From assembly GCA_964291575.2 (NCBI GenBank), contig OZ219850.1, positions 170,808 to 234,807 on the forward strand: a stretch of DNA of 64,000 bases, in the 5' to 3' direction. The DNA comes from Opitutales bacterium (GTDB lineage: Bacteria > Verrucomicrobiota > Verrucomicrobiia > Opitutales > UBA2995). Of this stretch, positions 14,359 through 56,733 are shown one piece after another. Both the position numbers and the translations under genes were made by a program. Within the stretch, counting starts at the first letter, position 1. Every line of letters starts with the position of its first letter. The notes under the pieces are model-generated. The model ran no database searches. It worked only from the letters and a program-made list of their open reading frames with translations, and had not been told where the DNA came from.

Positions 14359-14626
14359 GTAACTACCCAGGTATCTCAATCTATGGTCCGCAAGGATGTG
14401 ATTACCATATTACGAAACTGTAGGAGGGGGTTTATCCCGCGATTGCTAGGAGGCCGTTCAGAGAGATCGCGGCATAAAGCCGCTCCTACAGCTCTCCAAG
14501 TCGTTGATTTTTCCATCATTCCATCACTCCATTACTCCCTCCCCCAATCTTTGCGTCCTTTGCCTCTTGGCGTCTTTGCGAGAGACTCCTCTTCACAGGC
14601 CAAGCTATGGAGACCTGAGTAGTTAC
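14359..14626. mobile_element. MITE-like non-autonomous element, copy 1 (268 bp)
   Basis: Terminal inverted repeats GTAACTACCCAGGT...ACCTGAGTAGTTAC. Flanked by a perfect 8-bp direct repeat GGATTGTC (14351-14358 and 14627-14634). Internal long hairpin CTGTAGGAGGGGGTTTATCCC.... Confidence 0.8.
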
Positions 14627-14716
14627 GGATTGTCTTGCTTTATCAAGTCCAATCCGAAAGGATGGACTTCATCAATCGACCGTCAAGCGAAAGTTATAAT
14701 TCCCAATCGTTTTCAC

Positions 14717-15841
14717 ATGGTCCTGCAAGCTGACACGGTTTATAAGAAAATGGAGTTGAGGAAAAATCTGCTTCTCCAGGAGATTTTTCAAAATGGTCCG
14801 ATTGGCCGCAGTGAGTTGGGCAGGAATCTAAGAATGAGCAAATCGCGTCTCTGCGAAGTGGTTCTCGAAATGATCGACGTAGGATTGATCACGGAAGACC
14901 TCGAAGGCACAGAACGAAGAGGTCGGCGCCCGGTTCCGTTAAGCACTAATCCCGACTACGGCTGCTTTATCGGTCTGGACTTCGAAGCCAAACGAATGCG
15001 GGTAGTGGTGGTTGATTTTTCGGGCCAAGTACTTTTTCAAAAACAACAAAAGCTAAAGGCGATAAAGAGAAGAAATTCATTAATCAACAAACTCTTGGCC
15101 TTTATTGACGAAGGGACGAAAGCCGCAAAAAAATCCAAGGCTAAAATCCTGGGTATTGGCATCGCTGCACCGGGAACCATCCACAGAAAAACAGGGACTT
15201 TGGTTCATCACGATTTAATCGAGGCAGCCCATAATATTCCCCTTCGCCAGTTGGTGGAAGCCCACACCGGATTACCCTGTGTAGTCGAAAATAATATCCG
15301 GTGTTACGCATTAAGGGAATGGAGTTCGGGAGCAGCGAAAAATATGTCCAACTTTGTATTTATCGCCGTGCGTAGTGGCTTCGGCCTGGCTATTATGGCG
15401 GACGGAAAGGCCTTGAATGGCAGTCATGGACTATCAGGAGAAGCAGGCTCTGCTCCCGCACCGAGCAACGCGCCCGTTTCTCAATGGAAGACATTAAATG
15501 ATTTGGTCTCAGAGAAAGCCTTGAATGTGGAATCGGAGGAAAATGCAATCGACATACCCAGGGCAAAAGCCAAACCAGCCGGTGAAATCCTGGGTGCAAT
15601 GACAGCAACTTTAGCCACCTTGCTTGATCCTCAAGCCATTGTATTGGCTGGTGCACTACTGAAGCCGGAGGGGCCTCTCTGGAACACGGTTAACCAAACT
15701 TACAACCGTTTTATGTTGGCTGATGTAAAGGACGGAGTGCAACTGATTCCCTCGGAGGTGGGCCCATTCGCAGCTGCGATCGGCGCCACTCAAAGGTGTT
15801 TTCAGGAACTCTACTCAACCCGTCTAAACCTGGAAACATAG
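14717..15841 (+). CDS. ROK-family transcriptional regulator (NagC/XylR-like)
   Basis: N-terminal wHTH (NLLLQEIFQNGPIGRSELGRNLRMSKSRLCEVV) plus a ROK sugar-kinase-like fold. The track ORF start at 14504 lies inside the MITE. ATG 14717 or 14750 is more plausible. Confidence 0.8.
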   Translation: MVLQADTVYKKMELRKNLLLQEIFQNGPIGRSELGRNLRMSKSRLCEVVLEMIDVGLITEDLEGTERRGRRPVPLSTNPDYGCFIGLDFEAKRMRVVVVDFSGQVLFQKQQKLKAIKRRNSLINKLLAFIDEGTKAAKKSKAKILGIGIAAPGTIHRKTGTLVHHDLIEAAHNIPLRQLVEAHTGLPCVVENNIRCYALREWSSGAAKNMSNFVFIAVRSGFGLAIMADGKALNGSHGLSGEAGSAPAPSNAPVSQWKTLNDLVSEKALNVESEENAIDIPRAKAKPAGEILGAMTATLATLLDPQAIVLAGALLKPEGPLWNTVNQTYNRFMLADVKDGVQLIPSEVGPFAAAIGATQRCFQELYSTRLNLET

Positions 15842-22809: not shown

Positions 22810-23102
22810 GTAACTACTCAGGTATCTTAAACAATCGCCCCATGGATGATTTATAGATAGTAAATTACTAACCTGTAGGAGGGGGTTTATCCCCCGATTG
22901 CAGTGAGGCACGTTTGGAAGATCGGGGGATAAACCCCCTCCTACAGTTCTCCAAGTCTTGTTGATTTTTCGATTATACCAATACTCCATTACTCCATCAT
23001 CCCCCCCCCTCATTCTTTGCGTCCTTTGCCTCTTGGCGGCTTTGCGAGAGACTCCTCTTCACGTTCCCCCTCAGGCTAGGCTATGGAGACCTGAGTAGTT
23101 AC
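22810..23102. mobile_element. MITE-like element, copy 2 (293 bp)
   Basis: Same TIRs as copy 1 (GTAACTACTCAGGT...ACCTGAGTAGTTAC). Perfect 8-bp flanking direct repeat GTTCTCTT (22802-22809 and 23103-23110). Perfect 26-bp internal hairpin. Confidence 0.85.
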
Positions 23103-24377: not shown

Positions 24378-24608
24378 CTAGTGTGGTGTCCCAGAAATTC
24401 CCTTGCACGCCCGTCGGGGTCATGCCGTAGAAAAGTGATGCCTTACGAAAGAAAAGGGTCGGGTCAAAAAAACTGTATTCCGTTGTACTCCATACACTTT
24501 TACAAGACGACCGATCCTGTAAGGCATAACTTTTTACGTCTTGACCCCTTCTCCCGCGACCTCGAAACTCGCAGTTTATGTGAATGAATTTACAGGACAC
24601 CACACTAG
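24378..24608. repeat. 231-bp element bounded by perfect 14-bp inverted repeats CTAGTGTGGTGTCC (family B), copy 1
   Basis: TIRs at 24378-24391 and 24595-24608. The core recurs in inverted orientation at 42641-42788. No clear target-site duplication. Confidence 0.7.
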
Positions 24609-24793: not shown

Positions 24794-26215
24794 TCATCCT
24801 TCTCCAGGCCAATGTGGGGATGGCACGTGCTCGGATCTGAGGCGTCTTTCCAAGTCATTCGCGATTTCCGGATATTGCCCGGATACATCGGACTCTTCCC
24901 TGGGGTCCACCTCCAGGTCATACAATTCCAATGGGCCATCCAGGCCGTAGCGAACCGCCTTCCACTTGCCCAATCGTCCCGCCTGCCAGAGCCGTTTTCT
25001 GGGAAATTCCCAGTAGAGGAACCGTGTTGAGAGATCCTGGGGTTCCCCCCGAAGGGTCGGCGCCAAGCTGACTCCGTCAAGGTCCACGGGCAGCGGGGCT
25101 CCGGTCAGCTCCGCAAAAGTAGGGAGAATGTCCGCGAACATCCAGACCGTTTCATCGGTTGCCCCGGCCTCCACCTCGCCCGGCCACCTCACGATGAGGG
25201 GAACGTTGAGACCGCCCTCGTAAACCGTGCCTTTCCTTCCCCTTTTTCCTGCATTCGAGTCGAGAAACACCGTCCGGTCATTATTCACCGCCCCGTTGTC
25301 CGAGGTAAACATGACCAGCGTCTCTTCGGTAATTCCCAATCGTTCCAGCTCTTCCATTATTTCGCCCAGGTATCCGTCCAGACGCGACACCATGGCGGCA
25401 TAGATCTTGAACGGTTCCGGCCAATCCTCCTCCTCATAGGGACCAAGGGATGGCACTTCCATAAGGGCGTGGGGAATGGTGAAGGGAAGGTAGAGAAAGA
25501 ATGGTTCTTCCCTGTGCCGGCGCATGAAATCGAGGGCAAAATCGCGCATCAGGTCGTTGGAATACACTTGCCGTCTTCCACCCTGGTTTTCGGGAATGGC
25601 CATCTTTTCGCGGTTCCTCCAAAGAAAATCCGTGTAATAGTAGGAAGCGTGATTCTGATTGAGGTACCCCAGCCACTCATCGAAGCCCATGTGAGTCGGT
25701 GTCCCCACCGAAGTCGGCTCCCCTATTCCCCATTTGCCGGCCGCTCCCGTGGCATAGCCGGCTTCTTTTAGAACCGAGGCGACAGTCGGTTCATCCCCGA
25801 TCAATGATAACCGCATGCTGCCTTCCCCGAATTGCTCCAATTCGCCTCCCACTTGCGGTCCATTTCCCCGAATGCGGGCATGCCCCGCGTGCAGGCCCGT
25901 CATCAACACACAGCGGGAAGGAGCGCACACCGGCGAACCGGCATAGAATTGGGTAAACCGGGTTCCCTGTTCCGCCAGCCGGTCAATATGCGGGGTGAGA
26001 ATCTGATCCCCTCCAAAACAACCGAGATCTCCATATCCCAGATCATCCGCCATAATGAAGATGATATTGGGCTTGGTCGGGAAAGATTCCGCCCACACCA
26101 CCGATTGAATTGAACCGCAGAGGACACAGAGGAAAAAGCTCGCCAAGGCGCGCCAATCAGGAATTAGGAATGAAGAATGAGGAATTGGGAGAAGATGATG
26201 AACCACAGAGGACAT
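24794..26215 (-). CDS. sulfatase (formylglycine-dependent, arylsulfatase-A-like)
   Basis: IIFIMADDLGYGDLGCFG and CAPSRCVLMTG (C-x-P-x-R) motifs. The start is set at the first ATG giving a hydrophobic leader (26215). The track ORF extends to 26389 through repeats. Confidence 0.88.
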   Translation of the reverse strand: MSSVVHHLLPIPHSSFLIPDWRALASFFLCVLCGSIQSVVWAESFPTKPNIIFIMADDLGYGDLGCFGGDQILTPHIDRLAEQGTRFTQFYAGSPVCAPSRCVLMTGLHAGHARIRGNGPQVGGELEQFGEGSMRLSLIGDEPTVASVLKEAGYATGAAGKWGIGEPTSVGTPTHMGFDEWLGYLNQNHASYYYTDFLWRNREKMAIPENQGGRRQVYSNDLMRDFALDFMRRHREEPFFLYLPFTIPHALMEVPSLGPYEEEDWPEPFKIYAAMVSRLDGYLGEIMEELERLGITEETLVMFTSDNGAVNNDRTVFLDSNAGKRGRKGTVYEGGLNVPLIVRWPGEVEAGATDETVWMFADILPTFAELTGAPLPVDLDGVSLAPTLRGEPQDLSTRFLYWEFPRKRLWQAGRLGKWKAVRYGLDGPLELYDLEVDPREESDVSGQYPEIANDLERRLRSEHVPSPHWPGEG

Positions 26216-26479
26216 AGAGAGCACAGAGGGGGAGGAATGCAAAGGAAGAAGGCAGAAGGCAGAATGGGATCCACGAAGGACACGAAGAGGCGCGAAGAAA
26301 ATTTCGATCACGATCAAGATCAAGATTCGCCTCTCTTTCCTCTTCACTCTTTCCTCTTTCCTCTGGAGCGAAGCGACTTCCTCCCTCATTCTTTGCGTCC
26401 TTTGCCTCTTGGCGGCTTTGCGAGAGACTCCTCTTCACGTTCCCCCCCTCAGGCCAGGCTATGGAGACCTGAGTAGTTA
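26116..26479. repeat. mosaic word array ending in the right half of the MITE; overlaps the 5' end of the sulfatase CDS
   Basis: Words present: CCTCTGTGTCCTCTG, GGCGCGCC, (TTCCTAA)n in reverse orientation, (GATCAx)n, and CTTTGCGTCCTTTGCCTCTTGGCGGCTTTGCGAGAGACTCCTCTTCACGTT...GGAGACCTGAGTAGTTAC. Confidence 0.85.
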
Positions 26480-26740
26480 CCAAATCCTGCTAACATTCCA
26501 CCAGCGGGAGGTTCGAAAAACCATTTGTTGGGAAATGTCTGCATGGTCGCCGCCTGGTTTCCCTTTTCTTAGCTGGAATTTATGCGACCTCATCTCCGGT
26601 GGCACATCCACCAGATAATCTTTGTAAATCTGGAATTCATTCCAATTCTGCAAGAAATGCCCGGTGGCCAGATCATTTGGCACCCTTTTCAGGATGAAAG
26701 CATTCAGTGGACTAACTTGAAAAATAACGTTGATTTTCAA
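26477..26740 (-). CDS. possible degenerate RelE/HigB-like (killer-protein-like) toxin; very tentative
   Basis: 87 codons from a TTG. Only a loose by-eye resemblance of ...VDVPPEMRSHKFQLRKGKPGG..ISQQMVFRT to the ..LH.LKG.RKG.WS..IN.QWR..F pattern. Confidence 0.2.
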   Translation of the reverse strand: MKINVIFQVSPLNAFILKRVPNDLATGHFLQNWNEFQIYKDYLVDVPPEMRSHKFQLRKGKPGGDHADISQQMVFRTSRWWNVSRIW

Positions 26741-26800
26741 GATAATTACACTCAGCTTGGTAAGTGCGCAGGGCACGCAAAAACGAAGAAAGGCATTACC

Positions 26801-27058
26801 ATGAAAAACCATAAGGAAATCACGACGGAAGAATTTGACCGCCTGTTCGACGCTGGCAAAGACATCAGCGACATGGTCGACTGGTCGAAAGGCAAGCGTT
26901 TGCATGGCGGCAAGCGGCCTGGGTCAGGGCGCAAAGCCACTGGGCGCAAACCCTATACCGTTCGCCTTCAGCCTGAAGTTCACACCAAGATTCAGCAGCG
27001 GGCAAAAAAGAAAGGGATCAGCATTTCCGAATACATCGAAGAGTTGGCAAGCCGGTGA
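26801..27058 (+). CDS. ribbon-helix-helix (CopG/BrnA-like) antitoxin-type protein
   Basis: 85 aa. N-terminal EEFDRLFDAGKDISDMVDWSKGKR resembles BrnA-type antitoxins. C-terminal KPYTVRLQPEVHTKIQQRAKKKGISISEYIEELA is an RHH fold pattern. AAAGG lies upstream of the ATG. Confidence 0.55.
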   Translation: MKNHKEITTEEFDRLFDAGKDISDMVDWSKGKRLHGGKRPGSGRKATGRKPYTVRLQPEVHTKIQQRAKKKGISISEYIEELASR

Positions 27059-27265
27059 GGGTTTCCAATGTCTCCGATTAATTCCCCTTTCACGGCTGAT
27101 GATGAACCCGATTCCCTTAAAAATGCTACTCCCACACCAAGCTACGGGGTATCTAAGCACTTTTATCCGCCACTAAGCGGGGGACCGGAAATCGGGGACG
27201 TGCTATTACCGCCTCCAGGTGAGCCGGGCCTTTGACCTGTCCGATTAATATTGAAAACAAATTAA

Positions 27266-27605
27266 ACAGATTTACACGGATAAAGCGCCAACGGCGCCCG
27301 CATTTGTGCCCCTTCGTGTCCTCCGTGGATCTAATTTCTATTCAGCCTTTAACCTTCAGCCTTCAGCCCCTCTCTCAGCATCTCTTTTCCTTTGTGCCTT
27401 TTAATTCCTAATTGGCGGCCACGGCGCCTTTTGTGGAACCCCGTTGGGGTTCGTATTTTTTCCGATTCCTACCCAGTGTGCGTTTTGCGACACTGGGCTT
27501 TGGAGTGGAACTGCTTTGCAGTTCATTCAAGACTACTTTCCTCTTTCCTCTTTCCACTTTCCTCTGGGCTCCAGCCCCCCTCTGTGTCCTCTGTGGTCTC
27601 TGTGG
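27266..27605. repeat. mosaic word array
   Basis: Contents: ACAGATTTACACGGATAA, GCGCC-AAC-GGCGCC, AGCCTTY repeats, TTCCTAATTGGCGGCCACGGCGCC, hairpins GAACCCC-GTT-GGGGTTC and CCCAGTGT..ACACTGGG, CTCTGTGTCCTCTGTGGTCTCTGTGGTTA. Confidence 0.85.
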
Positions 27606-28952
27606 TTAAAATTTCTCGGTTTTAGCCAGAGGATTCTCAAACCAGATCACACCGAGTTTGAGGTTTTCCTCCGAGGTGACCACATCCGGATCGCCATCCA
27701 GATCCACATCGCAAAGCTGCAAATTGTCGTATTTCTCCTCAATGCGGCCCGGGGATTCACGGATGTCATGCAGTTTCCAACTGCCAGTTGTCGGTGTATC
27801 GTCATACTCGAGCCAGGAGACACGCGAGCCGACGCCCACATGGGTCGTGAATACGAGATCCACCTTACCGTCCCCATTCACATCGCCACACGCGACTCCC
27901 TTGGTCCCATTCTTGTAACCGGAGAAAGGGCGTTCACCATCCACATGCACCGGGCAGGAGGTAAATTCTTTCCCGTAGGCATGATTTCGGTACCAAGTTG
28001 CTACACGACTGCTTTGAGTATCCCGGTAGTCGGTGGCAACTATGTCGACATGACCGTTGCCGTCGAAGTCCGTCAAGGCCAGGAATGAAGCGGTATCCCC
28101 AAAAAGATCCACAGTGTGCATCCTCCAGGGCAAGTCCGGCAAAAAATTCGGACTGGGGTTTTCCAACCAAGCCAGCACATGTCGGGCTCCGGTTACGATG
28201 TCGAGATCCCCATCGCCATCCATATCGACCGGTTCGATACTCATAATACTGGGGGTTTCATTTGAGATCACGTACTCCTCCCATTCCATCGCCCGCGGAT
28301 CCTTTGAGGCCCGATACCAGTAGAGAGTTGGACTCGGTGTGCCTTTGTTCATTGCTCCCCCAATTACATCCAGTCCAGCCTCTCCATCCAACTGTGCCAC
28401 TTCTACCTGAACCCAGAGTCGCGCCGCCCTGTCTAAGCGCGTGCGAGTCCATCCGGTCTCATCCAGGTAGTCATTTGACGGACCGGGAGCCCAATGAATA
28501 AACAGTTGGCGGGTTGTCTCACTGGCAGTGATCACGTCCATCGATCCATCGCCATTCAGATCCCCGAATTTGGAATCTTCAATATCCCCCGCATCCAAAA
28601 TCACGCGTTTCACCCACTCCCCTTCCTTGGAATCAGAGCTGCCAGGATTCAAATACACAATGGCTTTGGAGGCATGCTGCCAGGCCGCCACCACATCCGG
28701 ATATCCGTCGTTGTCAACATCTTCCACATCGATACCGTCAGCGCCTTTTCCCATAAGTGGTCCCTTGTGAATGAAATGCATGATCCATTCGGCATCCTCA
28801 GTTTCCGACCCTTCTCTTTCAATAGAAGGCTTTATTGAATCGGTCGCCGAATCAGGGTACCCACAGGCGGCACAAAAGGAAAAGAAAAGGCCAAGACCAG
28901 CGAGGATATGCCCCAATCGTCTGCACAACGCTTCTGTTCCGTTTACCTGCAT
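27606..28952 (-). CDS. FG-GAP/VCBS repeat (integrin-alpha-like beta-propeller) lipoprotein
   Basis: Six or more D-x-[DN]-x-D-G-x-x-D Ca-binding repeats (DVDNDGYPDVV, DLNGDGSMDVI, DMDGDGDLDIV, DFDGNGHVDIV, DVNGDGKVDLV, DVDLDGDPDVV). N-terminal signal with Cys. Confidence 0.85.
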   Translation of the reverse strand: MQVNGTEALCRRLGHILAGLGLFFSFCAACGYPDSATDSIKPSIEREGSETEDAEWIMHFIHKGPLMGKGADGIDVEDVDNDGYPDVVAAWQHASKAIVYLNPGSSDSKEGEWVKRVILDAGDIEDSKFGDLNGDGSMDVITASETTRQLFIHWAPGPSNDYLDETGWTRTRLDRAARLWVQVEVAQLDGEAGLDVIGGAMNKGTPSPTLYWYRASKDPRAMEWEEYVISNETPSIMSIEPVDMDGDGDLDIVTGARHVLAWLENPSPNFLPDLPWRMHTVDLFGDTASFLALTDFDGNGHVDIVATDYRDTQSSRVATWYRNHAYGKEFTSCPVHVDGERPFSGYKNGTKGVACGDVNGDGKVDLVFTTHVGVGSRVSWLEYDDTPTTGSWKLHDIRESPGRIEEKYDNLQLCDVDLDGDPDVVTSEENLKLGVIWFENPLAKTEKF

Positions 28953-36667: not shown

Positions 36668-38143
36668 TCATCGTTGGATTTCCAGTTCGGCATAACGAAC
36701 GGAATGATACTCCTGCCCGTAGCCCATTTCCAAAAGGTCCACTCGGTTGCCAGGTTTACTTCCACCCCTCTCAGTGTTGGTAAAAAATCGGCCTTTCATA
36801 GGGGTTTTCAAGGGAACCCTCGCTATAGGACTCGGCTTTCCCGCATCATCCAGTTCAACCACGTACATTTCAGCGCCACTTTTCAAATCCGCTGAATATA
36901 TCCCCACCAAACTCCCATCTTCCAATCGGTGAAGTCGCCCCCAAAAAAGACCAACAAATCCTTTCTTTCCGGATTCCGATTCGCTGACTTCCACCAAGGA
37001 ACGCCTCAAAACCATTTTGCCTTCCTTCACCCGGGCGTATCCAATTTCTTGCGACAGGTCTTCACCGGGAAAAAACCGATCCCTTAAAAAGGGATATTGG
37101 AAACGTTGTTTGAGGTAGAGAATATGTGCCGTTCCGTCCTCATCGACTAACAGGTCCAGATTCATGGCATATCCCGGCCGATCCCGGATGCTGTCCACGA
37201 GAATCGATGGCTCGAAATGTCCGCGTTTAGCCTCCGGCGCCCATGTATAGTAAACATCCCGGAAGGCATAATCCCAATGTCGCCTGAAAACCTCATATTT
37301 GGCTTTTCTCCATTCTGCGACGGGCTCCTTTATATCACTGATGGCAAGGACATGGGCCTCTCCGTTCCTTACGAATAAATTTGGGTACAAGCTGCGAATC
37401 GGAAAGGTGAAGGGGAGGAAAGGATGCCACTTGCCTCCGGCATCACGGTAAGTTGGGTAATATAGCTCAGAATCAGGATCCAATACAAACAACAGGATCT
37501 CCCCTGTATGGGGCCACACTGCAATTCCCCGATAGGTGTGTTCCCGGAATCGACCACCCGATGAAAACTCTGGTTCAATCGTAGAGAGTCGCAGTTTCGT
37601 AGAATTCACCGAAAACCGGATGAGGTGAGGATGCGAATCCCACAAGGCGGCTTGGTTTTCCTCGCGAAAGAACCTGTACCTGGTTTTGGGATTTACAAAA
37701 ATTGCCAGAGAATCGGGCCCGACAAAAGCTATCGGACAGGGTTCGCGATTCCTCGGCCCTCGATCTTCCAAAACAACTTTCCAACCTCTGGCCAGGCGCT
37801 TGTAGATTTGCCAGAAGGTGTTTGCATAAGGTTCCTCGCCAATGACCGGACGCGAAAGGGAAAACCAGACATCGTCCCCTTTTCGGACCAACATGGGTGA
37901 TCCCGCATTCCAGCCGGGAGAAGAACCGTTGTTAAACCGCGGAATCCTCAAATCGATGGCTTCTTCGCGGTTTACCTCTACCCTTAAACCGAATACAGAG
38001 CCTGCCAGGACTGTGGAAAGGCCTAACGAAAGCCAGACTGTTCCATATCGAATATTCAAAATAACAATTCCGCTTCCTTCATGAATTGTTGGAGGACTGC
38101 GTATTCCAGGGACACTCTCATCCTGGCTCCCGGAAACAGTCAT
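36668..38143 (-). CDS. hypothetical protein, probably exported
   Basis: 491-codon ORF. A hydrophobic segment GTVWLSLGLSTVLAGSVFG near the N-terminus suggests the true start is an internal TTG near 38060. No nameable motif. Confidence 0.5.
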   Translation of the reverse strand: MTVSGSQDESVPGIRSPPTIHEGSGIVILNIRYGTVWLSLGLSTVLAGSVFGLRVEVNREEAIDLRIPRFNNGSSPGWNAGSPMLVRKGDDVWFSLSRPVIGEEPYANTFWQIYKRLARGWKVVLEDRGPRNREPCPIAFVGPDSLAIFVNPKTRYRFFREENQAALWDSHPHLIRFSVNSTKLRLSTIEPEFSSGGRFREHTYRGIAVWPHTGEILLFVLDPDSELYYPTYRDAGGKWHPFLPFTFPIRSLYPNLFVRNGEAHVLAISDIKEPVAEWRKAKYEVFRRHWDYAFRDVYYTWAPEAKRGHFEPSILVDSIRDRPGYAMNLDLLVDEDGTAHILYLKQRFQYPFLRDRFFPGEDLSQEIGYARVKEGKMVLRRSLVEVSESESGKKGFVGLFWGRLHRLEDGSLVGIYSADLKSGAEMYVVELDDAGKPSPIARVPLKTPMKGRFFTNTERGGSKPGNRVDLLEMGYGQEYHSVRYAELEIQR

Positions 38144-38197: not shown

Positions 38198-38342
38198 ACG
38201 CGCAGAAGCGCGCCAATTAGGAATTAGGAATGAAGAATGAGGAATTGGGGAGAAGGAAGTTTTAAACTATTAGGCTCGGTGACAGAGCCAGGGTGTTTTA
38301 GCCGGAAAGAGGACTCTCGCAAAGTTCGCCAAGAACGCTAAG
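38198..38342. repeat. word array flanking the IS element on the left
   Basis: GCGCGCC, then AATTAGGAATTAGGAATGAAGAATGAGGAATTGGG (near-identical to 26149-26190), then CTCGCAAAGTTCGCCAAGAACGCTAAG. Confidence 0.8.
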
Positions 38343-40113: not shown

Positions 40114-42606
40114 CTATCTCCAGGTTTTTCGCAGTTCCGTCACCTGGGCCCGGGAGTGCCTGAGAAATTTGCCGGAAATGACTTCTTCCGGCCGGCCTTC
40201 CCAATTCCAGCGGATGTTGAAACTCCCCACACCGCCTGAAGACAGTTGGTAACGAACTTCCACGGGATAGGTTTCACCTTCTTCCATGTCCAGCACGGCG
40301 GTATGAAAACCGGGAAAATCATCCAGTTCCATCAATGGCCTGCCGTTGATGATGAGGGAGAGGGCTTGCTCAGTGCTCCCGGTAAAGGTGATCTCACCGG
40401 AATGAGGACCAACCAAAAAACCACTCCAGATTCCGCCCCAATCATTTCCTCGTTTTTCCACCGCGTTATCGTAATCGATGGACAGGGCATCCAGGGGATA
40501 TTCTCCCTGTGGGTTGAAGAAGGAGGAACTGCCGAAAAAGGTTCCAACCAACCCCGGCATTTTGGGATGGTGATAGTCGGCCGGCAAAACTGCGCCCGGG
40601 ATCGCAATTTCGAAACCCAGGCTATCCACCGGAAGCTCCTCGGTCAATTTTCCGCCCAGAGCTTTTTTCAGATGGGGCAAATCGTAGTGCAACAACACGC
40701 CGTGGGCCGCATTGGCCAGTTGGTGAAATGAGCGTTCCCTTTTCAATATACTCTCCCAGGAACCGAGGCAGTTTACCAACCGGGTTCGCCCGATGAGTCC
40801 CGGTTCCAGAAAGGCGGCGTGCAGAGCCGCTACGGCAATTTGACCTTCCCCATGCAAGTCCACCCCTCGCCGGTCCCCGCCCCGGGTGTAACGAACCGCC
40901 CTCAAAATATCTTCTACACGCATACCCAGATAGCTCTCCCCCAAGACATAGGCGCTCTGAATATCCTCCTGATCCGTTCCAAAGAAACCGCCCTGGGTGA
41001 CCTGAAATTTCTGAGCCGTTTCCCCTACTCCCCGGGGATCTGCCGCCACAACCGGTCTGCCCGATTTCGCCACCTCATCCAGCCAGCCTCCTTCATAGGC
41101 CGAGGCCCCGGCGCCCTCGGTGCTGACATACAGCAAGGGCTTTTCCCCATTGGCCTCAACAGGTCGCAGATCCAGTAGGGGCAGGAATAATCCTTCCTCC
41201 GTCTCCAGAAGTCCCTTGTGGATAGTGTAACCATCGCGCTCGACCCTTCCCATTTCATGATAAACCGGCCGGGGAATTTCCATGAGAGGACGGACCTTTA
41301 GAGCAGAGCGAACCAACCGACGTTTTCCCTCTTCCTCCAGGCCATCCCAAACCGAGTCCCGCCCCGATCGAGCGGCCTCCAGCTTTTCCCGGAACAAATC
41401 GAATATCGACCGGGCCCCTTCCACATCCATAACCTGTCCCCCGGGGGTAGCCCAAAGCTCTTCCGGGGTAAACAGATCGAGCGGCGGCTCAACAATGGTT
41501 TCCACCCGCCCCTTCAACCATTGATTGAACCAGCGCATGGCCGCTTCCCGCTGGGTGCGGTTATAATTGTGACCAGCGTTGTTCTCCAGAATGTCGGCCC
41601 GTTCGGAAAATCCGAGATCCGTGTAATGGCGCTTGATCCAGCGGAAACTTTCCCAAACCGCATCGATTTGGAAAAAGTCGTGGGTGGAGGCCAGGACCTT
41701 GACTGGCGCAGGGGCTCGCATCAAATAGAGGGAGGGTTGCTCGATCCCGCTGGACATCTGGCCAAAATGCATTTGCTCCCAGTCCCCCATGGAATCGTGG
41801 ATCTGCCGGCGCAACAAATGGAGCCAACAGCTGGGGGCAGCCACTTTCAGGCGATCATCCAGGGCGAAGATGAAAGAGGTCTGCGTCCCCCCGCCGCTAT
41901 TACCGGTAATCCCGAGCAAATCGGAGTCGACCTCGGGACGACTCGCCAGGTAATCCAGAGCCCGAATGCCATCCCAGGCGAAGTACTGCATGAGGCCTTC
42001 ACCCAGCAAGGTGGCTATAACCCCCTCCTGCATGTGCATGTGAGTGCCGTAGTAGGGCCTGCTCCCATCATCCCTCTGGTATTGCTGGCGCTCCCCTTGA
42101 TCCAGTGGATCGAAAACCAAACCGACCATCCCATTCAAAGCCAGCAATGCGCCCATGGACTGGTATTCGTCATGCGCCTTGGCCACGTGGGCATGGCCGC
42201 ATGGAACCAGAACACCGGGATAAGGAGGGGCAAATCTGCCACTTTCCGGCACATACAGATTGGCCGAGACCAGGAAATCCGGACGGCTTTCCATAAGGAC
42301 CTTCTCAACGCGGAATCCGGGACGGCGCAACACACCTGTCACTTGCGGTTTCAGAGGAGTCCTCTCGGGAAAGCCTCCCAACAATTCAATCATCTGCCCT
42401 CGCAAGGTCCGGTTGTGCTCTTCCCACCCGCCTTCCTCCTGCAGTCGAAGAAAATCCTCCTGCCAGTCCTCGTAGGCGGACAACAGCTTCTCCTTCATCC
42501 AAACCTCAACCATATCCCCGGGAATGACACCGTCCGGCAAGCGGTCCGGCACAACCCGCACTTCTTCCGCCGTCAGGTGAATCACACCCCCCACCAACAA
42601 AATCAT
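40114..42606 (-). CDS. exported alpha/beta-hydrolase (esterase/peptidase-like) with C-terminal PA14-like domain
   Basis: Nucleophile elbow ITGNSGGG. The C-terminal ~140 aa are PA14-like (GLVGTFFGSSSF...GETYPVEVRYQLSSGG). The track start at 42801 runs through repeat family B. ATG 42606 is preceded by AAGGGAG and gives MILLVGGVIHLTA. Confidence 0.65.
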   Translation of the reverse strand: MILLVGGVIHLTAEEVRVVPDRLPDGVIPGDMVEVWMKEKLLSAYEDWQEDFLRLQEEGGWEEHNRTLRGQMIELLGGFPERTPLKPQVTGVLRRPGFRVEKVLMESRPDFLVSANLYVPESGRFAPPYPGVLVPCGHAHVAKAHDEYQSMGALLALNGMVGLVFDPLDQGERQQYQRDDGSRPYYGTHMHMQEGVIATLLGEGLMQYFAWDGIRALDYLASRPEVDSDLLGITGNSGGGTQTSFIFALDDRLKVAAPSCWLHLLRRQIHDSMGDWEQMHFGQMSSGIEQPSLYLMRAPAPVKVLASTHDFFQIDAVWESFRWIKRHYTDLGFSERADILENNAGHNYNRTQREAAMRWFNQWLKGRVETIVEPPLDLFTPEELWATPGGQVMDVEGARSIFDLFREKLEAARSGRDSVWDGLEEEGKRRLVRSALKVRPLMEIPRPVYHEMGRVERDGYTIHKGLLETEEGLFLPLLDLRPVEANGEKPLLYVSTEGAGASAYEGGWLDEVAKSGRPVVAADPRGVGETAQKFQVTQGGFFGTDQEDIQSAYVLGESYLGMRVEDILRAVRYTRGGDRRGVDLHGEGQIAVAALHAAFLEPGLIGRTRLVNCLGSWESILKRERSFHQLANAAHGVLLHYDLPHLKKALGGKLTEELPVDSLGFEIAIPGAVLPADYHHPKMPGLVGTFFGSSSFFNPQGEYPLDALSIDYDNAVEKRGNDWGGIWSGFLVGPHSGEITFTGSTEQALSLIINGRPLMELDDFPGFHTAVLDMEEGETYPVEVRYQLSSGGVGSFNIRWNWEGRPEEVISGKFLRHSRAQVTELRKTWR

Positions 42607-42640
42607 CCCAAATAAGACTCCCTTTACCGCCCTGGATGGG

Positions 42641-42788
42641 CCGCGGGGGAAGGGGTCAAGACGTAAAAAGTTTTGCCTTACAGGGTCGGTCGTCTTGAAA
42701 AAGTGTATGGAGTACAACGGAATACAGTTTTTAAGACCCGACCCTTTTCTTTCGCAAGGCAGCACTTTTCTACGGCATGACCCACTAG
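42641..42788. repeat. family B element, truncated copy 2 (inverted relative to copy 1)
   Basis: CGCGGGGGAAGGGGTCAAGACGTAAAAAG...CTACGGCATGACCCACTAG aligns with the reverse complement of 24400-24560. Confidence 0.75.
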
Positions 42789-42797
42789 GAGGTCCCC

Positions 42798-44105
42798 TCA
42801 CCGATCGCCAATGGAACCGTCCGGCCAGCGATGTGCGCTCCAGTCCTTGGGTTTATAGGGCATTTTGGCCGCTACCTTTTCGTCCAGATCCAATCCGAGG
42901 CCAGGCCGGTCCGGCGGTAGCGCGAATCCATTTTCAAAGACTACACCTCCCCCATGAAAAAGGTCCTGGAAATAGGGAGACTGGCCTGAGCCAATTTCCA
43001 GTAAGGTGGCGTTGGGCGTGCTCATGCACACGTGCAGGCTGGCCATGGTGCTGACTTCGCTCTGGGGATTATGAGGGGACATTTCGATGCGGAATGCCTC
43101 CGCCAAAGCGGCAATTTTACGCATCTCCCCAATCCCTCCGCAATGGACCACGTCCGGGTTCACGTAATTCACCAAGTGCCGGGCGCAGATTTCAGTAAAC
43201 GCGTACTTGGTCAACAATCGTTCCCCTGTGGCCAAAGGCACGGCCGTTTGCGACCGAAGGAGAGCCAACTCGCCGATGTCTTCCTGCTGGGTCGCTTCCT
43301 CCACCCAGAAGGGATCATACTCCTCCGCTCGGCGGCAAAACTGAATCGCCATCGGGGTGGTCGGCTTCCCATGGGCATCGATCAAAATGTCGAAATCCGG
43401 GCCCACCGCTTCCCGTACCCGCCTGAGCCGGTCGATGGCCGTCCGAATCATCTTGGCCGGCTCGACCAGATTATTCTCGGCCTCGAGGAAACCGGCCTTG
43501 CAGGCGGTCCACCCCTGTTCCTTCCGTTTCAAGTACCTTTCCGGATATGAGAGCGGTTCGGGTTTCGGCGTTCCGGGAGGCTGGTGGTGATGCATGAGAA
43601 CGTTCCCGCTACGCACGTGCGGATAGACGCGGACTTTATCGCGTGCCTTTCCTCCCAGAAGTTTCCAGATAGGCTGTCCCAGCGCCTTTCCCAGAATATC
43701 CCACAAGGCGATCTCCACCGCACTGAGGGCGGAGGTGAGGATAGGACCGCCCCGGTAACGTGGGCCCCGGAACATACCCTGCCACAAGCGTTCGATATTG
43801 GTGGGGTCCTTACCTAGAAGATAGCGCTTGTGCTCCTGAATGGCCGCTTCCACCGTAAGTCCCTTGCCGGTCATGGTTCCTTCACCGAGACCGGTTATTC
43901 CCTGGTTGGTGTAGATCTTGACGTAAACGAAATTTTCGTCGTTTGCCGAATCGACAACAAAGGTCCGCAGGTCGGTAATTTCCAGGTTCAAGTCCTCCGC
44001 CCTGGCATAATGTGCTTCTGACTCCTTCGAGCGGGCCAGAAGGCTTTGCCTTGCCAAACCGGCCATTCCCGTAAGACCCAAACCCAAAAATTGGCGACGC
44101 TTCAT
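42798..44105 (-). CDS. enolase-superfamily dehydratase (mandelate racemase/galactonate-mannonate dehydratase-like) with a twin-arginine signal peptide
   Basis: 435 aa. MKRRQFLGLGLTGMAGLA Tat motif. MR/MLE N- and C-terminal domains (KIYTNQGITGLGEGT, DAHGK, EEATQQED, LATGERL). Confidence 0.8.
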   Translation of the reverse strand: MKRRQFLGLGLTGMAGLARQSLLARSKESEAHYARAEDLNLEITDLRTFVVDSANDENFVYVKIYTNQGITGLGEGTMTGKGLTVEAAIQEHKRYLLGKDPTNIERLWQGMFRGPRYRGGPILTSALSAVEIALWDILGKALGQPIWKLLGGKARDKVRVYPHVRSGNVLMHHHQPPGTPKPEPLSYPERYLKRKEQGWTACKAGFLEAENNLVEPAKMIRTAIDRLRRVREAVGPDFDILIDAHGKPTTPMAIQFCRRAEEYDPFWVEEATQQEDIGELALLRSQTAVPLATGERLLTKYAFTEICARHLVNYVNPDVVHCGGIGEMRKIAALAEAFRIEMSPHNPQSEVSTMASLHVCMSTPNATLLEIGSGQSPYFQDLFHGGGVVFENGFALPPDRPGLGLDLDEKVAAKMPYKPKDWSAHRWPDGSIGDR

Positions 44106-44205: not shown

Positions 44206-44912
44206 ATTTGTGGAACCCCTTTGGGGTTCGATGATGGGGTGATCGGTAACCCAGCGTGCGCTGCGCGACACTGGGCTTTGGAGTTCAACGCCGTTGGCGT
44301 AAAAACCAGATCTTTGCATCGGTTGATTTCATTGCGCTTCGAGAATTTTGCGAGGAGTCATTTCCCTTCTCCAAGTCGGTGGTTTTTCGATCAAGATCAT
44401 GATCAAGATCACGATCACGATGATTTACTTCGTGCCCCTTCGTGGATCCAATTCCCTTTCAGCCTTTAGCCTTCAACCTTCAGCCTTTAGAATCCTTTGT
44501 GCCTTTGTGCCTTTTCATTCCTAATTCCTAATTGGCGCCAACGGCGCCCCTCCTCTTTCCACTTGGCGCGTCAGCGCTCCCCCCTCCTACAGCTCTCCAA
44601 GTCATTGATTTTTCCACCACTCCACCATTTCTCTTTCCATGGGGGACAGGAATGTCCCCCCTCCGTTACTCCATCACTCCCCCACTCCATCACTCCATCA
44701 CTCCACCACTCCACCACTCCCCCACTCATTCTTTGCGTCCTCTGCCTCTTGGCGGCTTTGCGAGATGCCCCTCTTCACGTTTCCCCCTCCTTTATTTCTG
44801 CGCTAATCTGCGTCATCTGCGGTTCCTCTCCCTCTCAGCATCTCAGCAACTCTTCCAATTCCTAATTCCTAATTCCTAATTCCTAATTGGCGCGAAGCGC
44901 CTTTAGCCTTCA
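44206..44912. repeat. largest mosaic word array (~0.7 kb), includes an internal MITE fragment
   Basis: Order: GAACCCC hairpin, CCCAG..CTGGG hairpin, (GATCAx)n, AGCCTTY units, TTTGTGCC x2, (TTCCTAA)n-GGCGCC hairpin, MITE interior (CCTCCTACAGCTCTCCAAGTC...), GGGGGACAGGAATGTCCCCC palindrome, (CCAYCACTC)n, CTTTGCG... word, AATCTGCG units, CATCTCAGC units, (TTCCTAA)4-TTGGCGCGAAGCGCC, AGCCTT units overlapping the stop codon of 44910. Confidence 0.9.
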
Positions 44913-47549: not shown

Positions 47550-49292
47550 TTATTTTAATTCGCTCAGCTTGATCGTGCGCGAAAAAATCGGTTCGTCGTC
47601 GATGCTGACGATCTCGAACCGCATTTCGGGGTCATCCAGCCCGGTATGGAAATTCAGGACCCCGAAGGATGGCTTCTCGTTGTAGCCGAAGACGGCCCCC
47701 GGCATCAGGTCGGCCGTATGGATGTTGGTCAGCCGGGAACTCGACATTTCATAGAGGGGATAATCCCCCTCCCGATGGTTTATCCAAAAGTCGCTACGGT
47801 GCCGGTCCCCGGAGAGGAGAAGCACGCCCTCGATCCGGTTCCGGCCAAGGTAGCGGAAGATTTCTTCCCGTTCCTCGATGAACCCGTTCCAGGTATCTTT
47901 GCTTCCGGGTTTGGCTGCGGAAGCCCAGGCCACCGGCGAGGCGATAACCTTGAAGGCAGCCTTGGAGGCTTTCAGACCCGACAACAACCAATCCTTCTGA
48001 ACCGGGCCCAGCATGGTCTTCTCCTCCTTGTGCGGATTGGTCCGGTAAGTTCGGCCATCCAGCATGAAGATGTCCACGTCACCCAGGGAGAATTGGAACC
48101 AACAACCCGGCCAACCCGGCACGCCTCCTCCGGGATTTACCCAGTTGCGCTGAAATACTTCGACCATGGGCTGCTTCCAGACCGGCCTGTCTCTATACGG
48201 CCCCATCCAGACATCATCCGTGGCCGAATCGTGATCGTCCCAGATGGCGTATAGGGCGGTGGTATGCCCAAGTTTTCGGAAATCCGGTTGAGATTGACGG
48301 CGGTAGTAAGTGTAGCCGTGAAAGGCTCCCGGCATTTCCGGCATGTTGATGTAGACGTTGTCTCCCAGCAACAACATGGCGTCCAATTGCCGCGCCGCCA
48401 AAGTGGACCACATGTATTCATACTTGGGTGTGTAGCCGGCACATCCCCCTACACCGATCTTGAATGAACCCGAACTACCCATCTCCGGGTAGGTGCGGAA
48501 AGTGAGCCCGGCATCCCTCAGCACAGGAGCTCCATTCACCAACACATCATAGCGATACTGCGTGTCGGATTGCAGGCCTTCTACCGTCACTACAACAGTG
48601 TAATCCGCCCCGGCCTCGGCTCGACCCGAGGCTTTGGCTGCAAGCTGCCCGCCTTGGTCGAAACAGCGGACCTCCACCGTATCCTCTCCCATTGTCCTGA
48701 ACCAGAAACGGGCGCTTTCACTGGTTACCGACCCCAACATGGGCCCATGGATGAGACCGTCCCCCTTTTCCTCCGCCACAGCCTGAAATCGGGGAGAATT
48801 CGTAAGGTTTTTCAACAGATCCCTGGGACCGGCCAGGAAGCGGGAAAACTCCATACCGTTCTGCAAAGCCTTGCCCATGGATTCCATGGCTTTTCCGACT
48901 TCCCCCTTTACCGAATGAGCCACCGTCAGGATGAACCAGGACTCCGCGTCGGTGGCATCCTCCTCCAGGCGAAACTCGGCCAAAGAGATGGCTTCATCTA
49001 TGTCCCCTTCCAGAATCTTCAACAGTTGCCGTTGCCCCCGGCGCTTGTAGAGCATCTCCGCCCTCACCGCGGAAAACTGCCGCCGGGTCCATTCGTTTTC
49101 GCTACCGTAATAGGCGAAATCCGGATCCTCCACCCAGGCATCCTCCGGCGCGAATTGCCCATAGTTCTCGGCAATGGCTTTTATTTCCTCTACCGTCAGC
49201 GGCCTCGTGTCGCCCGCTTTGTTCCCCTGCGGATAAACCGCCGAACCAAGCAAAAGCACCGCCAGAACCAATATTGAGGAAATCAAGCGCAT
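47550..49292 (-). CDS. PhoD-like alkaline phosphatase/metallophosphatase, exported, with helical N-terminal domain
   Basis: LLLGDNVYIN, IWDDHDSATDD and LLLSGDRHRSDF metallophosphatase motifs. Signal peptide MRLISSILVLAVLLLGSAVYPQG. The track start at GTG 49361 lies in repeat DNA; ATG 49292 chosen. Confidence 0.85.
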   Translation of the reverse strand: MRLISSILVLAVLLLGSAVYPQGNKAGDTRPLTVEEIKAIAENYGQFAPEDAWVEDPDFAYYGSENEWTRRQFSAVRAEMLYKRRGQRQLLKILEGDIDEAISLAEFRLEEDATDAESWFILTVAHSVKGEVGKAMESMGKALQNGMEFSRFLAGPRDLLKNLTNSPRFQAVAEEKGDGLIHGPMLGSVTSESARFWFRTMGEDTVEVRCFDQGGQLAAKASGRAEAGADYTVVVTVEGLQSDTQYRYDVLVNGAPVLRDAGLTFRTYPEMGSSGSFKIGVGGCAGYTPKYEYMWSTLAARQLDAMLLLGDNVYINMPEMPGAFHGYTYYRRQSQPDFRKLGHTTALYAIWDDHDSATDDVWMGPYRDRPVWKQPMVEVFQRNWVNPGGGVPGWPGCWFQFSLGDVDIFMLDGRTYRTNPHKEEKTMLGPVQKDWLLSGLKASKAAFKVIASPVAWASAAKPGSKDTWNGFIEEREEIFRYLGRNRIEGVLLLSGDRHRSDFWINHREGDYPLYEMSSSRLTNIHTADLMPGAVFGYNEKPSFGVLNFHTGLDDPEMRFEIVSIDDEPIFSRTIKLSELK

Positions 49293-49981
49293 TTTGTAAT
49301 CGATCCTGAATAAGTTTTCATCGTTTCGGAAGGTTGGATAGTTCGGATTTTCTCGCGCCACTTGTCACGCCGTAATTCATGAAGGCGGAAGCACGCAAAG
49401 ACCGCTAAGAAGAAACCACAAAAAGCTCAAAAATCCCAAAAAGTTTTCTACAACTAACCACAGATTATACAGATTTACACGGATAAGGCGCCGCAGGCGC
49501 CCGCCTCTGTGTCTTTTCCACTATTATTTGGCCGTTAATCCTTTTATTGAAATTGTTGGGGGACAGGAATGTCCCCCCTCCTTTTTTAATCTGCGTTAAT
49601 CTGCGTCATCTGCGGTTCCTCTTCTCCTAATTCCCTGTCTTTGCGTTCTTGGCGATCTTCCGCCTTCAAGCGTTACGGCGTGACGTGTTGCGAGAGTTAA
49701 ATTAGTGAGAAGTGGAGAGATGCCAGGAATTAAGCCTTTAGCCTTCGTGCCTTCAATTCCTAATTCCCAATTCCTAATTCCTAATTCCTAATTCCTAATT
49801 GGCGCCCCCAGGCGCCTCTTATCCTGTGCATCCATGTTTAATTTTCGATCACGATCAAGATCACGATCAAGATCACGATTCCAAGAAATCTCAGCATCTC
49901 GGCAACTCAGCATCTCGGCATCTCTAATAATTCCTAATTCCTAATTGGCGCCCCCAGGCGCCTTTGTGCTCTGTGGTTAAT
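49293..49981. repeat. mosaic word array (~0.69 kb) including the shared leader cassette
   Basis: Contains nearly the whole vocabulary, including the longest (TTCCTAA)n run (49757-49800) and two TTGGCGCCCCCAGGCGCC hairpins. Confidence 0.9.
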
Positions 49982-55265: not shown

Positions 55266-55456
55266 AGGGGAAAAAGGGGTCAAAAAACGTGAAGAGGAGT
55301 CTCTCGCAAAATCGTGATCGTGATCGTGATCGAAAATTTCTGAGGAACCAACCACGGATTGAATTTTCAACTGGGAAGAAAACGTAAAGAGGAGTCTCTT
55401 TGCGTCTTTGCGAGATGCCCCTCTTCACGTTTCCCCCCTATTGCCTTTTTTCCCGT
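55266..55456. repeat. word array with an inverted pair of the GAGAGACTCCTCTTCACG word
   Basis: CGTGAAGAGGAGTCTCTCGCAAA (about 55290-55312) faces TTTGCGAGATGCCCCTCTTCACG (about 55405-55430). GATCAC units and CCACGGATT lie between. Confidence 0.8.
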
Positions 55457-56644: not shown

Positions 56645-56733
56645 AAAAAGGGGTCAAACGCAAAATGTTGAAATCGACCGCTAACGTTCCCCCCACCATC
56701 CAGATTTTAACATTTTGCGTTTGACCCCTTTTT
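56645..56733. repeat. 89-nt near-perfect hairpin (family C), copy 1
   Basis: 31-nt arms AAAAAGGGGTCAAACGCAAAATGTTGAAATC / GATTTTAACATTTTGCGTTTGACCCCTTTTT with one G-T pair and a 27-nt loop. Preceded by a MITE left TIR at 56607. The right arm contains the sulfatase stop codon. Confidence 0.9.

Follow-up and report, generated by a model that had tools for sequence, protein, structure and literature searches.

How do exported proteins come to begin with signal peptides whose coding DNA reads like the repetitive DNA between genes? This question is raised by a stretch of 64,000 nucleotides from an Opitutales bacterium (contig OZ219850.1, positions 170,808 to 234,807 of the forward strand; referred to as the window), in which a sulfatase gene (24794..26215, minus strand) and a gene for a right-handed beta-helix protein (60962..62641, minus strand, open reading frame (ORF) from GTG 62641) both have 5' ends made up of words of the intergenic repeat arrays. 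A comparison with related genomes leads us to conclude that array DNA probably encodes a translated and functional N-terminal part of both leaders. The event is a replacement inside an existing leader, and no cytoplasmic protein was endowed with export by it. For the array-type leaders we infer from sequence where translation starts, that they are cleaved and that they direct export. In the following, L numbers designate related loci and P numbers proteins.

Intergenic Repeat Words of the Window

The window has a G+C content of about 52% and belongs to the genome of a marine member of the Opitutales (Verrucomicrobia); its sulfatase and its beta-helix protein both have their nearest relatives in metagenome-assembled genomes (MAGs) of Opitutales/Opitutae. 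From about 14 kb on (14-64 kb) almost all intergenic regions carry recurring short tandem-repeat words. These comprise (AATTCCT)n followed by a TGGCGCC-N3-5-GGCGCC hairpin, 9-mers of the type CCTCTGTG(N), the 8-mers TTTGTGCC and TCCATCAC, the 7-mers GCCTTCA, CTCAGCA and GGTCAGT, the words CCTCTGTGN and GATCA[AC]GATCAC, and CTTTGCG...GAGAG blocks together with several longer hairpin elements. The arrays are thus built like heptamer or short tandemly repeated repetitive (STRR) arrays, from head-to-tail units of 6-9 nt which are mainly intergenic and recur. The same vocabulary is present in related Opitutales loci and absent from the more distant genomes examined. Each array is a mosaic of 7-9-nt words with one strand of about 66% pyrimidine, and peptides read from this strand have a mean Kyte-Doolittle value of +0.38, as compared with -1.22 for the opposite strand.

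The Sulfatase Leader

Read on the minus strand from ATG 26215, the sulfatase begins with MSSVVHHLLPIPHSSFLIPDWRALASFFLCVLCGSIQSVVWA|ESFPTKPNIIFIMADD (leader segment ...LSMSSVVHHLLPIPHSSFLIPDWRALASFFLCVLCGSIQSVVWA). The predicted signal-peptide coding region (26090..26215, minus strand) comprises 42 codons, with cleavage predicted after VVWA at 26090 and with GTG 26206 and TTG 26146 as alternative starts. Three array elements on the same strand make up most of it: a CTCT[A]TGTCCTCTGTGG word (26201..26220) supplies both ATG 26215 and GTG 26206, a degenerate AATTCCT array with the TGGCGCGCC palindrome (26147..26192) encodes PIPHSSFLIPDWRA, the n-region with the sole Arg, and a CCTCTGTGTCCTCTGCGGTT word (26113..26132) encodes the h-region core LCVLCG and closes with GGTT(C)AA, as arrays usually do. 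The last 18 nt (26090..26107, minus strand), which encode the c-region and cleavage site QSVVWA (CAATCGGTGGTGTGGGCG), are non-repeat, and homology to orthologues resumes here. The mature sulfatase (24794..26089, minus strand) belongs to the PF00884 family and has an intact CAPSR active-site motif, corresponding to the C/S-x-P-x-R motif of sulfatases; its homologues at 88-90% identity carry PF00884/PF16347.

The array origin of these elements can be measured within the window. With up to three mismatches the CCTCTGTGTCCTCTGCGGTT word has seven matches including its own site, where shuffles give 0.00, and CATTCCTAATTCCTGATTGGCGCGCC (26147-26172, minus strand) has six including its own site, with 0.00 expected. 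One of the latter (38207-38232) lies in a gene-free AATTCCT/hairpin copy (38207..38258, minus strand; longer string 38209-38258), which precedes the gene 36668..38143 by about 50 nt (48 bases) and is out of its frame. Moreover, the 69-nt stretch 26122-26190 finds a 78% complementary match in the intergenic array 49765-49833. A first-pass annotation, made from the letters of the window, had proposed that the N-termini of the sulfatase and the beta-helix protein are written in intergenic words and that the sulfatase string recurs gene-free elsewhere; matches of 20-30 nt where shuffles give none, and the copy at 38207-38258, bear out both statements. The sulfatase span that it gave, 26116-26215, is repeat-derived as proposed but ends short of the cleavage site at 26090, and with it of the 18 non-repeat nucleotides.

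The Beta-Helix Leader

The beta-helix ORF reads V-VTSFLIPNWRRRRLLCACVPLCLCAFFPILLPAMV-GPRS (VVTSFLIPNWRRRRLLCACVPLCLCAFFPILLPAMV-GPRS) from GTG 62641, and its signal-peptide coding region (62534..62641, minus strand) would yield (M)VTSFLIPNWRRRRLLCACVPLCLCAFFPILLPAMV, a leader kept in L211 and L209/L210. Here a AATTGGCGCC-GAC-GGCGCC hairpin module (62599..62617, minus strand) is read as N-W-R-R-R-R-L and TTTGTGCC/CTGTGCC 8-mer words (62564..62595, minus strand) encode the h-region LCACVPLCLCA. The following FFPILLPAMV (62534..62563, minus strand) is homologous to FFPAHLPAVA of L081 and is regarded as the ancestral leader part; it precedes the mature right-handed beta-helix protein (PF13229; 60962..62533, minus strand). 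The exact hairpin module occurs six times in the window, as compared with 0 expected, and is followed by TGTGCC 8-mers. The earlier translations, from the hairpin to WRRRR and from the TGTGCC words to LLCACVPLCLCA, were reproduced, as was the N-terminus from GTG 62641 apart from one V that had been omitted.

About 110 nt upstream of this GTG (62642-62755, minus strand) show a divergence of about 4.5% from L209 and L211 and are more conserved than the leader or the synonymous sites. The stretch includes CGCAAAG words, shows no relation to the sequence that precedes the gene with the ordinary leader in L081 and is probably a promoter or 5' untranslated region (UTR) acquired along with the arrays.

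Both Leaders Resemble Sec Signal Peptides

Sec leaders (signal peptidase I) combine a positively charged n-region with an h-region, in which about 7-15 or more uncharged residues form a hydrophobic stretch, and small or neutral residues at -3/-1. The array-type leaders have uncharged spans of 20 residues with 10-residue Kyte-Doolittle maxima of 2.72 (sulfatase) and 2.71 (beta-helix), and orthologues with ordinary leaders range from 2.3 to 3.0. At -3/-1 the sulfatase shows V-W-A|E, a site that it shares with its orthologues with ordinary leaders, and the beta-helix protein L-P-A|M or A-M-V|G, matching A-V-A|G in L081. In h-region hydrophobicity and -3/-1 residues array leaders are therefore indistinguishable from ordinary ones. 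The beta-helix n-region (WRRRR) has a net charge of +4; a sulfatase leader starting at TTG 26146 would hold no charged residue in the window, and relatives have MAR or an extra Arg there.

Two other leader classes were rejected. The motif of twin-arginine translocation (Tat) signals is S/T-R-R-x-F-L-K with a moderately hydrophobic h-region behind it, conserved between orthologues; the sulfatase has a single Arg, and RRRRLL of the beta-helix protein is WRLL in L209 and RKRLL or without RR in ordinary orthologues. Lipoproteins (signal peptidase II) possess the lipobox [LVI][ASTVI][GAS]C where the h-region ends. Inspection of the array-type leaders shows an L before their Cys residues (FLC, VLC, PLC, CLC), orthologues being without Cys at these positions; the sole A-C (LLCAC) comes after a hydrophobic stretch of only two residues.

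Orthologues With Ordinary Leaders

N-termini were read for 60 sulfatase homologues, the closest ones. A signal peptide just before the KPNIIFIMADD strand is present in nearly all of them, and the few exceptions are truncated calls, e.g., P0030. The ordinary leader MIQPLWRLFLLLFLPVTGGQSVAWA is common to P0003, P0004, P0005 and P0007 (82-86% identity), and P0247, within the 90% cluster, also carries it. Likewise, all listed beta-helix orthologues have a leader before GPRSEAVD, which in P0121/L081 is MAHFLEYSVRKRLLTLLLTVFFPAHLPAVA and stems from unique DNA behind a 280-bp A/T-rich divergent promoter region. The assumption that both proteins need a signal peptide agrees with all orthologues listed, and relatives lacking the repeats do use unrelated leaders, encoded by unique DNA that cannot be aligned to the array segment.

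Upstream of the sulfatase lies an FG-GAP gene (27606..28952, minus strand), and the junction of both genes documents the states with and without array. In L002 the ordinary leader comes from unique DNA and its ATG overlaps the FG-GAP stop codon (ccATGAtcc; 0 bp intergenic), and in L207 the ordinary leader DNA follows about 180 bp of non-repeat sequence. The array at this junction measures 1390 bp in the window (26216..27605), about 400 bp in L085, about 230 bp each in L086, L001 and L212, and about 50-150 bp in L214. Its leader-encoding part closes with the usual array terminus CTCTG(C/T)GGTT(C)AA, and the alignment to the ordinary leader restarts only at CAATCGG(T/A)GG (codons Q-S-V/E-x-W/R-A plus cleavage site). 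Because the alignment resumes only there, the sulfatase c-region is ancestral, and start codon, n-region and h-region are array sequence which replaced the ordinary leader. That the ordinary leader is the ancestral state was deduced from the wider orthologue set and not from the gene tree. In the beta-helix gene, window and L081 leader have only TTTTTCCC...GCC..G (FFPxxLPAxx) in common and everything further upstream is array, so that here, too, the array has replaced the upstream part of an ordinary leader of which the ancestral c-region and cleavage site were kept. The array-type beta-helix leader is found in three genomes: the window, L211 (P0272) and L209/L210 (P0265).

The array-type sulfatase leaders fall into two types. 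Type A, composed of AATTCCT words, palindrome and CTCTGTG words, is present in at least six genomes (the window, L085, L212, L213, L214 and P0246); in type B (L086, L001, P0243, P0244 and P0254) GCCTTCA words replace the AATTCCT/hairpin part. In L212 a type-A leader precedes SEARA, the c-region that characterises type B and L207. A shared TTGGCG of the ordinary and the array-type leader was considered as a microhomology junction and then put down to chance, because the alignment using it does not keep the frame. Exact-protein look-ups of P0007, P0122 and the FG-GAP protein of the window returned no record.

Divergence along the sulfatase gene (24794-26089 compared with L085, L086, L001, L002 and L207) is mosaic: at nt 151-300 L086 differs from L207 by 3%, as against 18% between window and L086. 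Such a pattern indicates that the Opitutales species concerned have undergone homologous recombination with one another. Polarisation by the gene tree gave conflicting results between pairwise dS (synonymous divergence), sliding-window divergence and quartet site counts (32/25/13).

Coding-Like Changes in the Array-Derived Segments

Substitutions within the array-derived segments follow the frame of the genes. For the beta-helix leader the ratio of nonsynonymous to synonymous differences (pN/pS) among the three genomes is 0.25-0.41 in the gene frame and 1.18 and 1.01 in the other frames; for the sulfatase n-region in five type-A genomes it is 0.33 as compared with 0.62 and 4.29. The sulfatase h/c-region has a gene-frame value of 0.52, its changes being swaps among hydrophobic residues or Ser. 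Length changes keep the frame as well: L209/L210 have lost 9 nt within the hairpin (WRRRRLL to WRLL) and P0246 has lost 21 nt in the sulfatase n-region (HSSFLIP, three heptamers). GTG 62641 is kept in all three genomes with the array-type beta-helix leader. In L209 and L211 an in-frame TAA is located 32 codons upstream, and no ATG, GTG or TTG intervenes between this stop and the counterpart of GTG 62641. These lines of evidence for translation are indirect and agree with one another. A beta-helix start at GTG 62641 is well supported, and for the sulfatase an upstream start (26215 or 26206) is favoured, though not firmly, over TTG 26146.

Synonymous divergence amounts to 0.20-0.28 in the beta-helix leader and 0.21-0.40 in the mature gene, and because the two are similar the chimeric leader has long been co-inherited with its gene, across speciation. 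The mature proteins are, to judge from their substitutions, functional and under purifying selection: the ratio of nonsynonymous to synonymous divergence (dN/dS) is 0.145-0.17 for the sulfatase (five orthologues) and 0.13-0.15 for the beta-helix protein, and the overall range of 0.13-0.17 applies to comparisons with array-type and ordinary leaders alike, at dS values of 0.3-0.6.

Several points weigh against translation of the complete array-derived segments or against selection on them. By-eye tallies of the changes gave an excess of synonymous ones both in the beta-helix leader (9 of about 18 as compared with 25% expected, binomial p about 0.02) and in the sulfatase n-region (6/13, p about 0.08), and these are small counts. 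Concerted evolution of array copies could be partly behind the conservation of the leaders, as a near-identical gene-free copy exists at 38207-38258. Where the sulfatase starts is ambiguous. At 26215 L085 has GTG, L212 ATG and L213/L214 ACG, the latter two with an ATG 11 codons farther upstream instead, and each of the five type-A sequences keeps both GTG 26206 and TTG 26146. The genome is without Shine-Dalgarno motifs, so that context offers no means of ranking starts; 23 confident starts of the window have none and are preceded by A/T-rich sequence. A start at ATG 26215 would imply an n-region of unusual length (22 aa) with one Arg, one Asp and a net charge of 0. Type B (L086, L001) has no conserved nearby start, and in the long-read MAG L001 the frame is interrupted by a stop 31 codons upstream of the cleavage site, which leaves only a TTG. 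The beta-helix hairpin scores terminator-like in the sense direction. As the gene history is mosaic, the array-type sulfatase leader may have arisen once or more than once.

Which Part of the Leaders Is Translated?

The alternative that survives best assumes starts within the array segment, at TTG 26146 (MASFFLCVLCGSIQSVVWA) and GTG 62584 (MPLCLCAFFPILLPA), so that only the h-region would be repeat-encoded and the AATTCCT/hairpin part would be 5' UTR. Such short leaders are possible but unlikely. They would explain the persistence of TTG 26146 in all five type-A sequences, where it mostly opens a compact MAR/MAH plus hydrophobic leader in relatives, the public call of P0265, which begins at the GTG equivalent to 62584, and the missing net charge of the long sulfatase n-region. 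However, the sulfatase n-region evolves with the lowest pN/pS in the gene frame, and changes of a coding-like kind extend over the beta-helix leader, n-region included, along with the in-frame 9-nt deletion in the hairpin. Moreover, both short leaders would be without a charged n-region in the window, and TTG 26146 lies within a GC palindrome, unlike the A/T-rich context of the confident starts. The upstream starts are therefore retained as the preferred reading.

It is very unlikely that the intrusion destroyed the signal peptides, with starts lying downstream (ATG 62539, GTG 26098 or the Met of FIMADD) and proteins that are cytoplasmic, mis-localised or on the way to pseudogenes; in that case the open frame through the repeats would be an accident of stop-poor low-complexity DNA. 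Gene callers indeed chose MVGPRS in P0272 and MADDLGYG in P0242, P0250 and P0251, the stop in L001 fits a broken leader, and elsewhere in the window ORFs often extend into arrays upstream of the normal Met. Yet the mature proteins keep a dN/dS of about 0.15, the same as orthologues with ordinary leaders, and the array-type leaders persist in several species with in-frame indels and frame-specific substitutions. A start at MADD would remove the conserved first beta-strand KPNIIFI, and export is expected from the signal peptides of all listed orthologues. The first-pass annotation had named a start at ATG 62539 with a cytoplasmic product as the case that would overturn its proposal; this Met is not conserved (GTG in L211, GGT in L209), and the leader of all orthologues would be lost, which makes the case unlikely.

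Coincidence between two T/C-rich sequences, or a derivation of the words from leader-coding sequence, is effectively refuted by shuffle statistics and orthologue alignments: ordinary leaders are T-rich too and show some convergent similarity at the protein level (TTGGCG, i.e., W-R, in the sulfatase, RKRLL in the beta-helix protein), but they cannot be aligned to the array segment, which has exact or near-exact 20-30-nt matches and the 69-nt match to an intergenic array, and the words occur with 7- and 8-nt periods, in both orientations and mostly at gene 3' ends.

Proposed Origin of the Chimeric Leaders

The following course of events would account for a translated array segment in both leaders. 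Arrays would expand or insert in intergenic DNA until a functional constraint is met, and their position flush with stop codons may be due to expansion halting at such a constraint. At two genes an array lies directly upstream with its pyrimidine-rich strand in sense, and it has taken the place of the front two-thirds of an ordinary Sec-type leader. The start codon would come from the CTCT[A/G]TG word in the sulfatase and from the sequence immediately upstream of the array in the beta-helix gene, the TGGCGCC hairpin would yield Trp-Arg or Arg4 as basic n-region, and the CTCTGTG/TTTGTGCC words a hydrophobic core of Leu, Cys, Val and Phe. The c-region and signal-peptidase site that were kept (SVVWA|E; LPAxV|GPRS) would follow in frame, and the resulting chimeric leader would be translated and would still direct export. 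A 5' intrusion would survive only with the pyrimidine-rich strand in sense, the frame kept and an existing start codon. Codons with a middle T, and hence hydrophobic residues, presumably result from the pyrimidine-rich strand, and since signal peptides need only physicochemical features, in-frame sense intrusions may have been tolerated and then kept by selection.

Comparison With Known Repeat Systems

[quoted passage not shown] The likeness consists in repetitive, mostly non-coding DNA that lies in frame within genes and is translated without destroying the protein. RPEs, however, are discrete elements of about 150 bp with a conserved peptide of their own which insert internally into genes of cytoplasmic metabolism, whereas the Opitutales arrays are mosaics of 7-9-nt words, located at the extreme 5' end, where a functional module (n- and h-region of the signal peptide) was swapped for an equivalent one. 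Modules are shared between array copies, as between 26149-26192 and 38209-38258, with length and word order varying per locus. Terminal inverted repeats or target-site duplications were not evident at either of the two gene junctions, although no systematic search for them was made.

Heptamer arrays of TAACTGA are known from intergenic regions of Beggiatoaceae, Cyanobacteria and Bacteroidetes (PMC4679880). Common features are direct repeats of 7 nt near gene ends and a lineage with few Shine-Dalgarno sites. STRR heptamers of cyanobacteria are intergenic short tandem repeats as well. TAACTGA and STRR arrays consist of one or few heptamers, mostly just upstream of starts, and a regulatory role was proposed for them; the Opitutales arrays, in contrast, contain many words (7, 8, 9 and 12 nt) and hairpins in stereotyped order, lie flush with stop codons and are coding in two cases. 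In Borg elements tandem repeats create new protein regions (PMC9879509), and here as there fast-evolving repeats in or at the edge of ORFs give rise to compositionally biased protein segments under selection. Borg repeats arise locally within ORFs and encode disordered hydrophilic regions, whereas the Opitutales words pre-exist genome-wide between genes and encode a hydrophobic targeting signal. None of these three precedents rebuilds a targeting signal from genome-wide intergenic words.

Signal peptides are tolerant of sequence change. Kaiser et al. reportedly found in 1987 that a sizeable fraction of random peptides can substitute for a signal sequence, using engineered constructs in yeast. 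In both situations an unrelated hydrophobic stretch after a basic residue can stand in for n- and h-region; the Opitutales substitution differs in being natural, with a defined genomic source and traceable across related genomes. Natural cases of new leaders with an identifiable source, and with the states before and after in sister genomes, are scarce, and here two unrelated exported enzymes have the same outcome, an ancestral cleavage site with the upstream part replaced by repeat words on which a frame-specific constraint still acts. They offer a concrete model of how repetitive non-coding DNA may be recruited into functional bacterial coding sequence. The array leaders also explain conflicting public gene calls, which for the sulfatase and beta-helix orthologues span from 58 additional repeat-encoded codons (P0245, the public entry of the window sulfatase, called from ATG 26389) to truncation at MADDLGYG or MVGPRS. 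Systematic unreliability of start-site and secretome predictions is to be expected in repeat-rich Verrucomicrobia. The arrays themselves represent an undescribed, highly dynamic feature of the clade that abuts stop codons and alters C-terminal tails. No Rfam family matched anywhere in the window, arrays and longer palindromes included, and we found no account in the literature of these Opitutales arrays or of repeat-derived bacterial signal peptides.

Occurrence of Array-Derived Leaders

Array-derived leaders were found in two of about 35 genes of the window. Other array-adjacent genes keep an ordinary Met-plus-leader downstream of the array, e.g., 52860..55370, 47550..49361 and 14504..15841, and in about 90 kb of relatives' loci the sulfatase was the only recurrent case. 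The case is clean and traceable, yet seldom met with in the sequences analysed. When metagenome DNA was scanned with TTCCTAATTGGCGCC, 120 loci were returned, nearly all of them chance matches in unrelated coding DNA as a 15-mer is too short; array context was flagged in two of the 120 (L112 and its near-identical duplicate L168). A phmmer search with the 36-aa beta-helix leader gave 0 matches among 1.84 billion representatives. An array-frame peptide profile (FLIPNWR...) run on 5.8 billion proteins led to 104 candidates with one match at E=4, which is no evidence for or against a wide class of FLIPNWR leaders.

The proposal that arrays act as a reservoir of secretion leaders stands insofar as array DNA appears to form start, n-region and h-region; it has to be narrowed in that existing leaders are overwritten, in few genes, and that a systematic function is not shown. 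The arrays do not provide ready-made leaders either. Among the 12 AATT-GGCGC modules in the window the canonical copies are closed in every frame by a TAA upstream of the hairpin, at a distance of at most 5, 3 and 1 codons, respectively, and their frame 0 is without start codon. Only two modules are open, at 26155 and 62614; both are degenerate, sense-oriented, gene-adjacent and in the W-R frame, and run into ORFs of 453 and 550 codons, respectively.

A wider interpretation would see the arrays as an active clade-wide process that continually rewrites both gene ends, with leaders regenerated repeatedly from shared words and cytoplasmic proteins occasionally gaining one. Genes would receive new stops and C-terminal tails (TAA|CCACAG) from arrays at their 3' end, and new starts and n-/h-regions from sense arrays at their 5' end. 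We regard this as rather doubtful; if true, the birth of targeting signals from non-coding DNA would be directly observable across sister genomes.

Arrays at Gene 3' Ends and Other Repeats

The stop codon TAA of the FG-GAP gene is the TTAA terminus of the adjoining array. FG-GAP tails next to arrays read AKTEKF*, AKTEK*, AKSGKE* or VEISTR* with CCACAG words directly after the stop, and the tail in the array-free L002 is AGNPAGSGNLPGPLP*. The FG-GAP tail was thus altered together with the sulfatase leader, and arrays rewrite gene 3' ends too. In several genes the stop TAA is the terminal TTAA of the array itself (in gene sense TAA|CCACAGAG...), and stop codons of convergent genes directly abut arrays at 27603-27608, 47547-47552, 49976-49984, 52857-52862 and 44910-44912 as well as in L001, L085, L086 and L212.

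AATTGGCGCC-N-GGCGCC modules in forward orientation, followed by TCCTTTGTGC or TTTGTG, have scores like intrinsic terminators. Nine of 12 hairpin modules are oriented opposite to neighbouring minus-strand genes, an orientation that would suit termination of antisense transcription. Inside the 1.39-kb array block between FG-GAP gene and sulfatase lies a small ORF (26582..27058, plus strand) with a ribbon-helix-helix/antitoxin-like C-terminus (…RLQPEVHTKIQQRAKKKGISISEYIEELA), which was not present at this junction in any relative examined.

Further repeats are separate from the leaders. A 145-nt element, which looks MITE-like, has two inverted copies of 94% identity. The copy 24417-24561 is located between the 3' ends of a thiolase gene and the sulfatase gene; the copy 42639-42783 lies between the genes 42798..44105 and 40114..42801 and lengthens an ORF upstream of its likely true Met. 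Two palindromic intergenic families are distinct from the short-word arrays, one of about 90 nt (GAAAAAGGGGTCAAACGCAAAATGTTGAAATC...GATTTTAACATTTTGCGTTTGACCCCTTTTTC; 56644-56734, 63119-63209 and 58215-58304) and one of about 94 nt (CTGTAGGAGGGGGTTTATCCC...GGGATAAACCCCCTCCTACAG; 14409-14502 and 22864-22957). Another sulfatase gene (56707..58080) carries a perfect 77-nt tandem duplication (58028-58181) which spans its start, the first 18 codons (MTGSHPNILLVIVDDLSS) and 24 nt upstream. Since 77 is not divisible by three, the upstream copy is out of frame; the duplication could be a real recent event or an assembly artefact.

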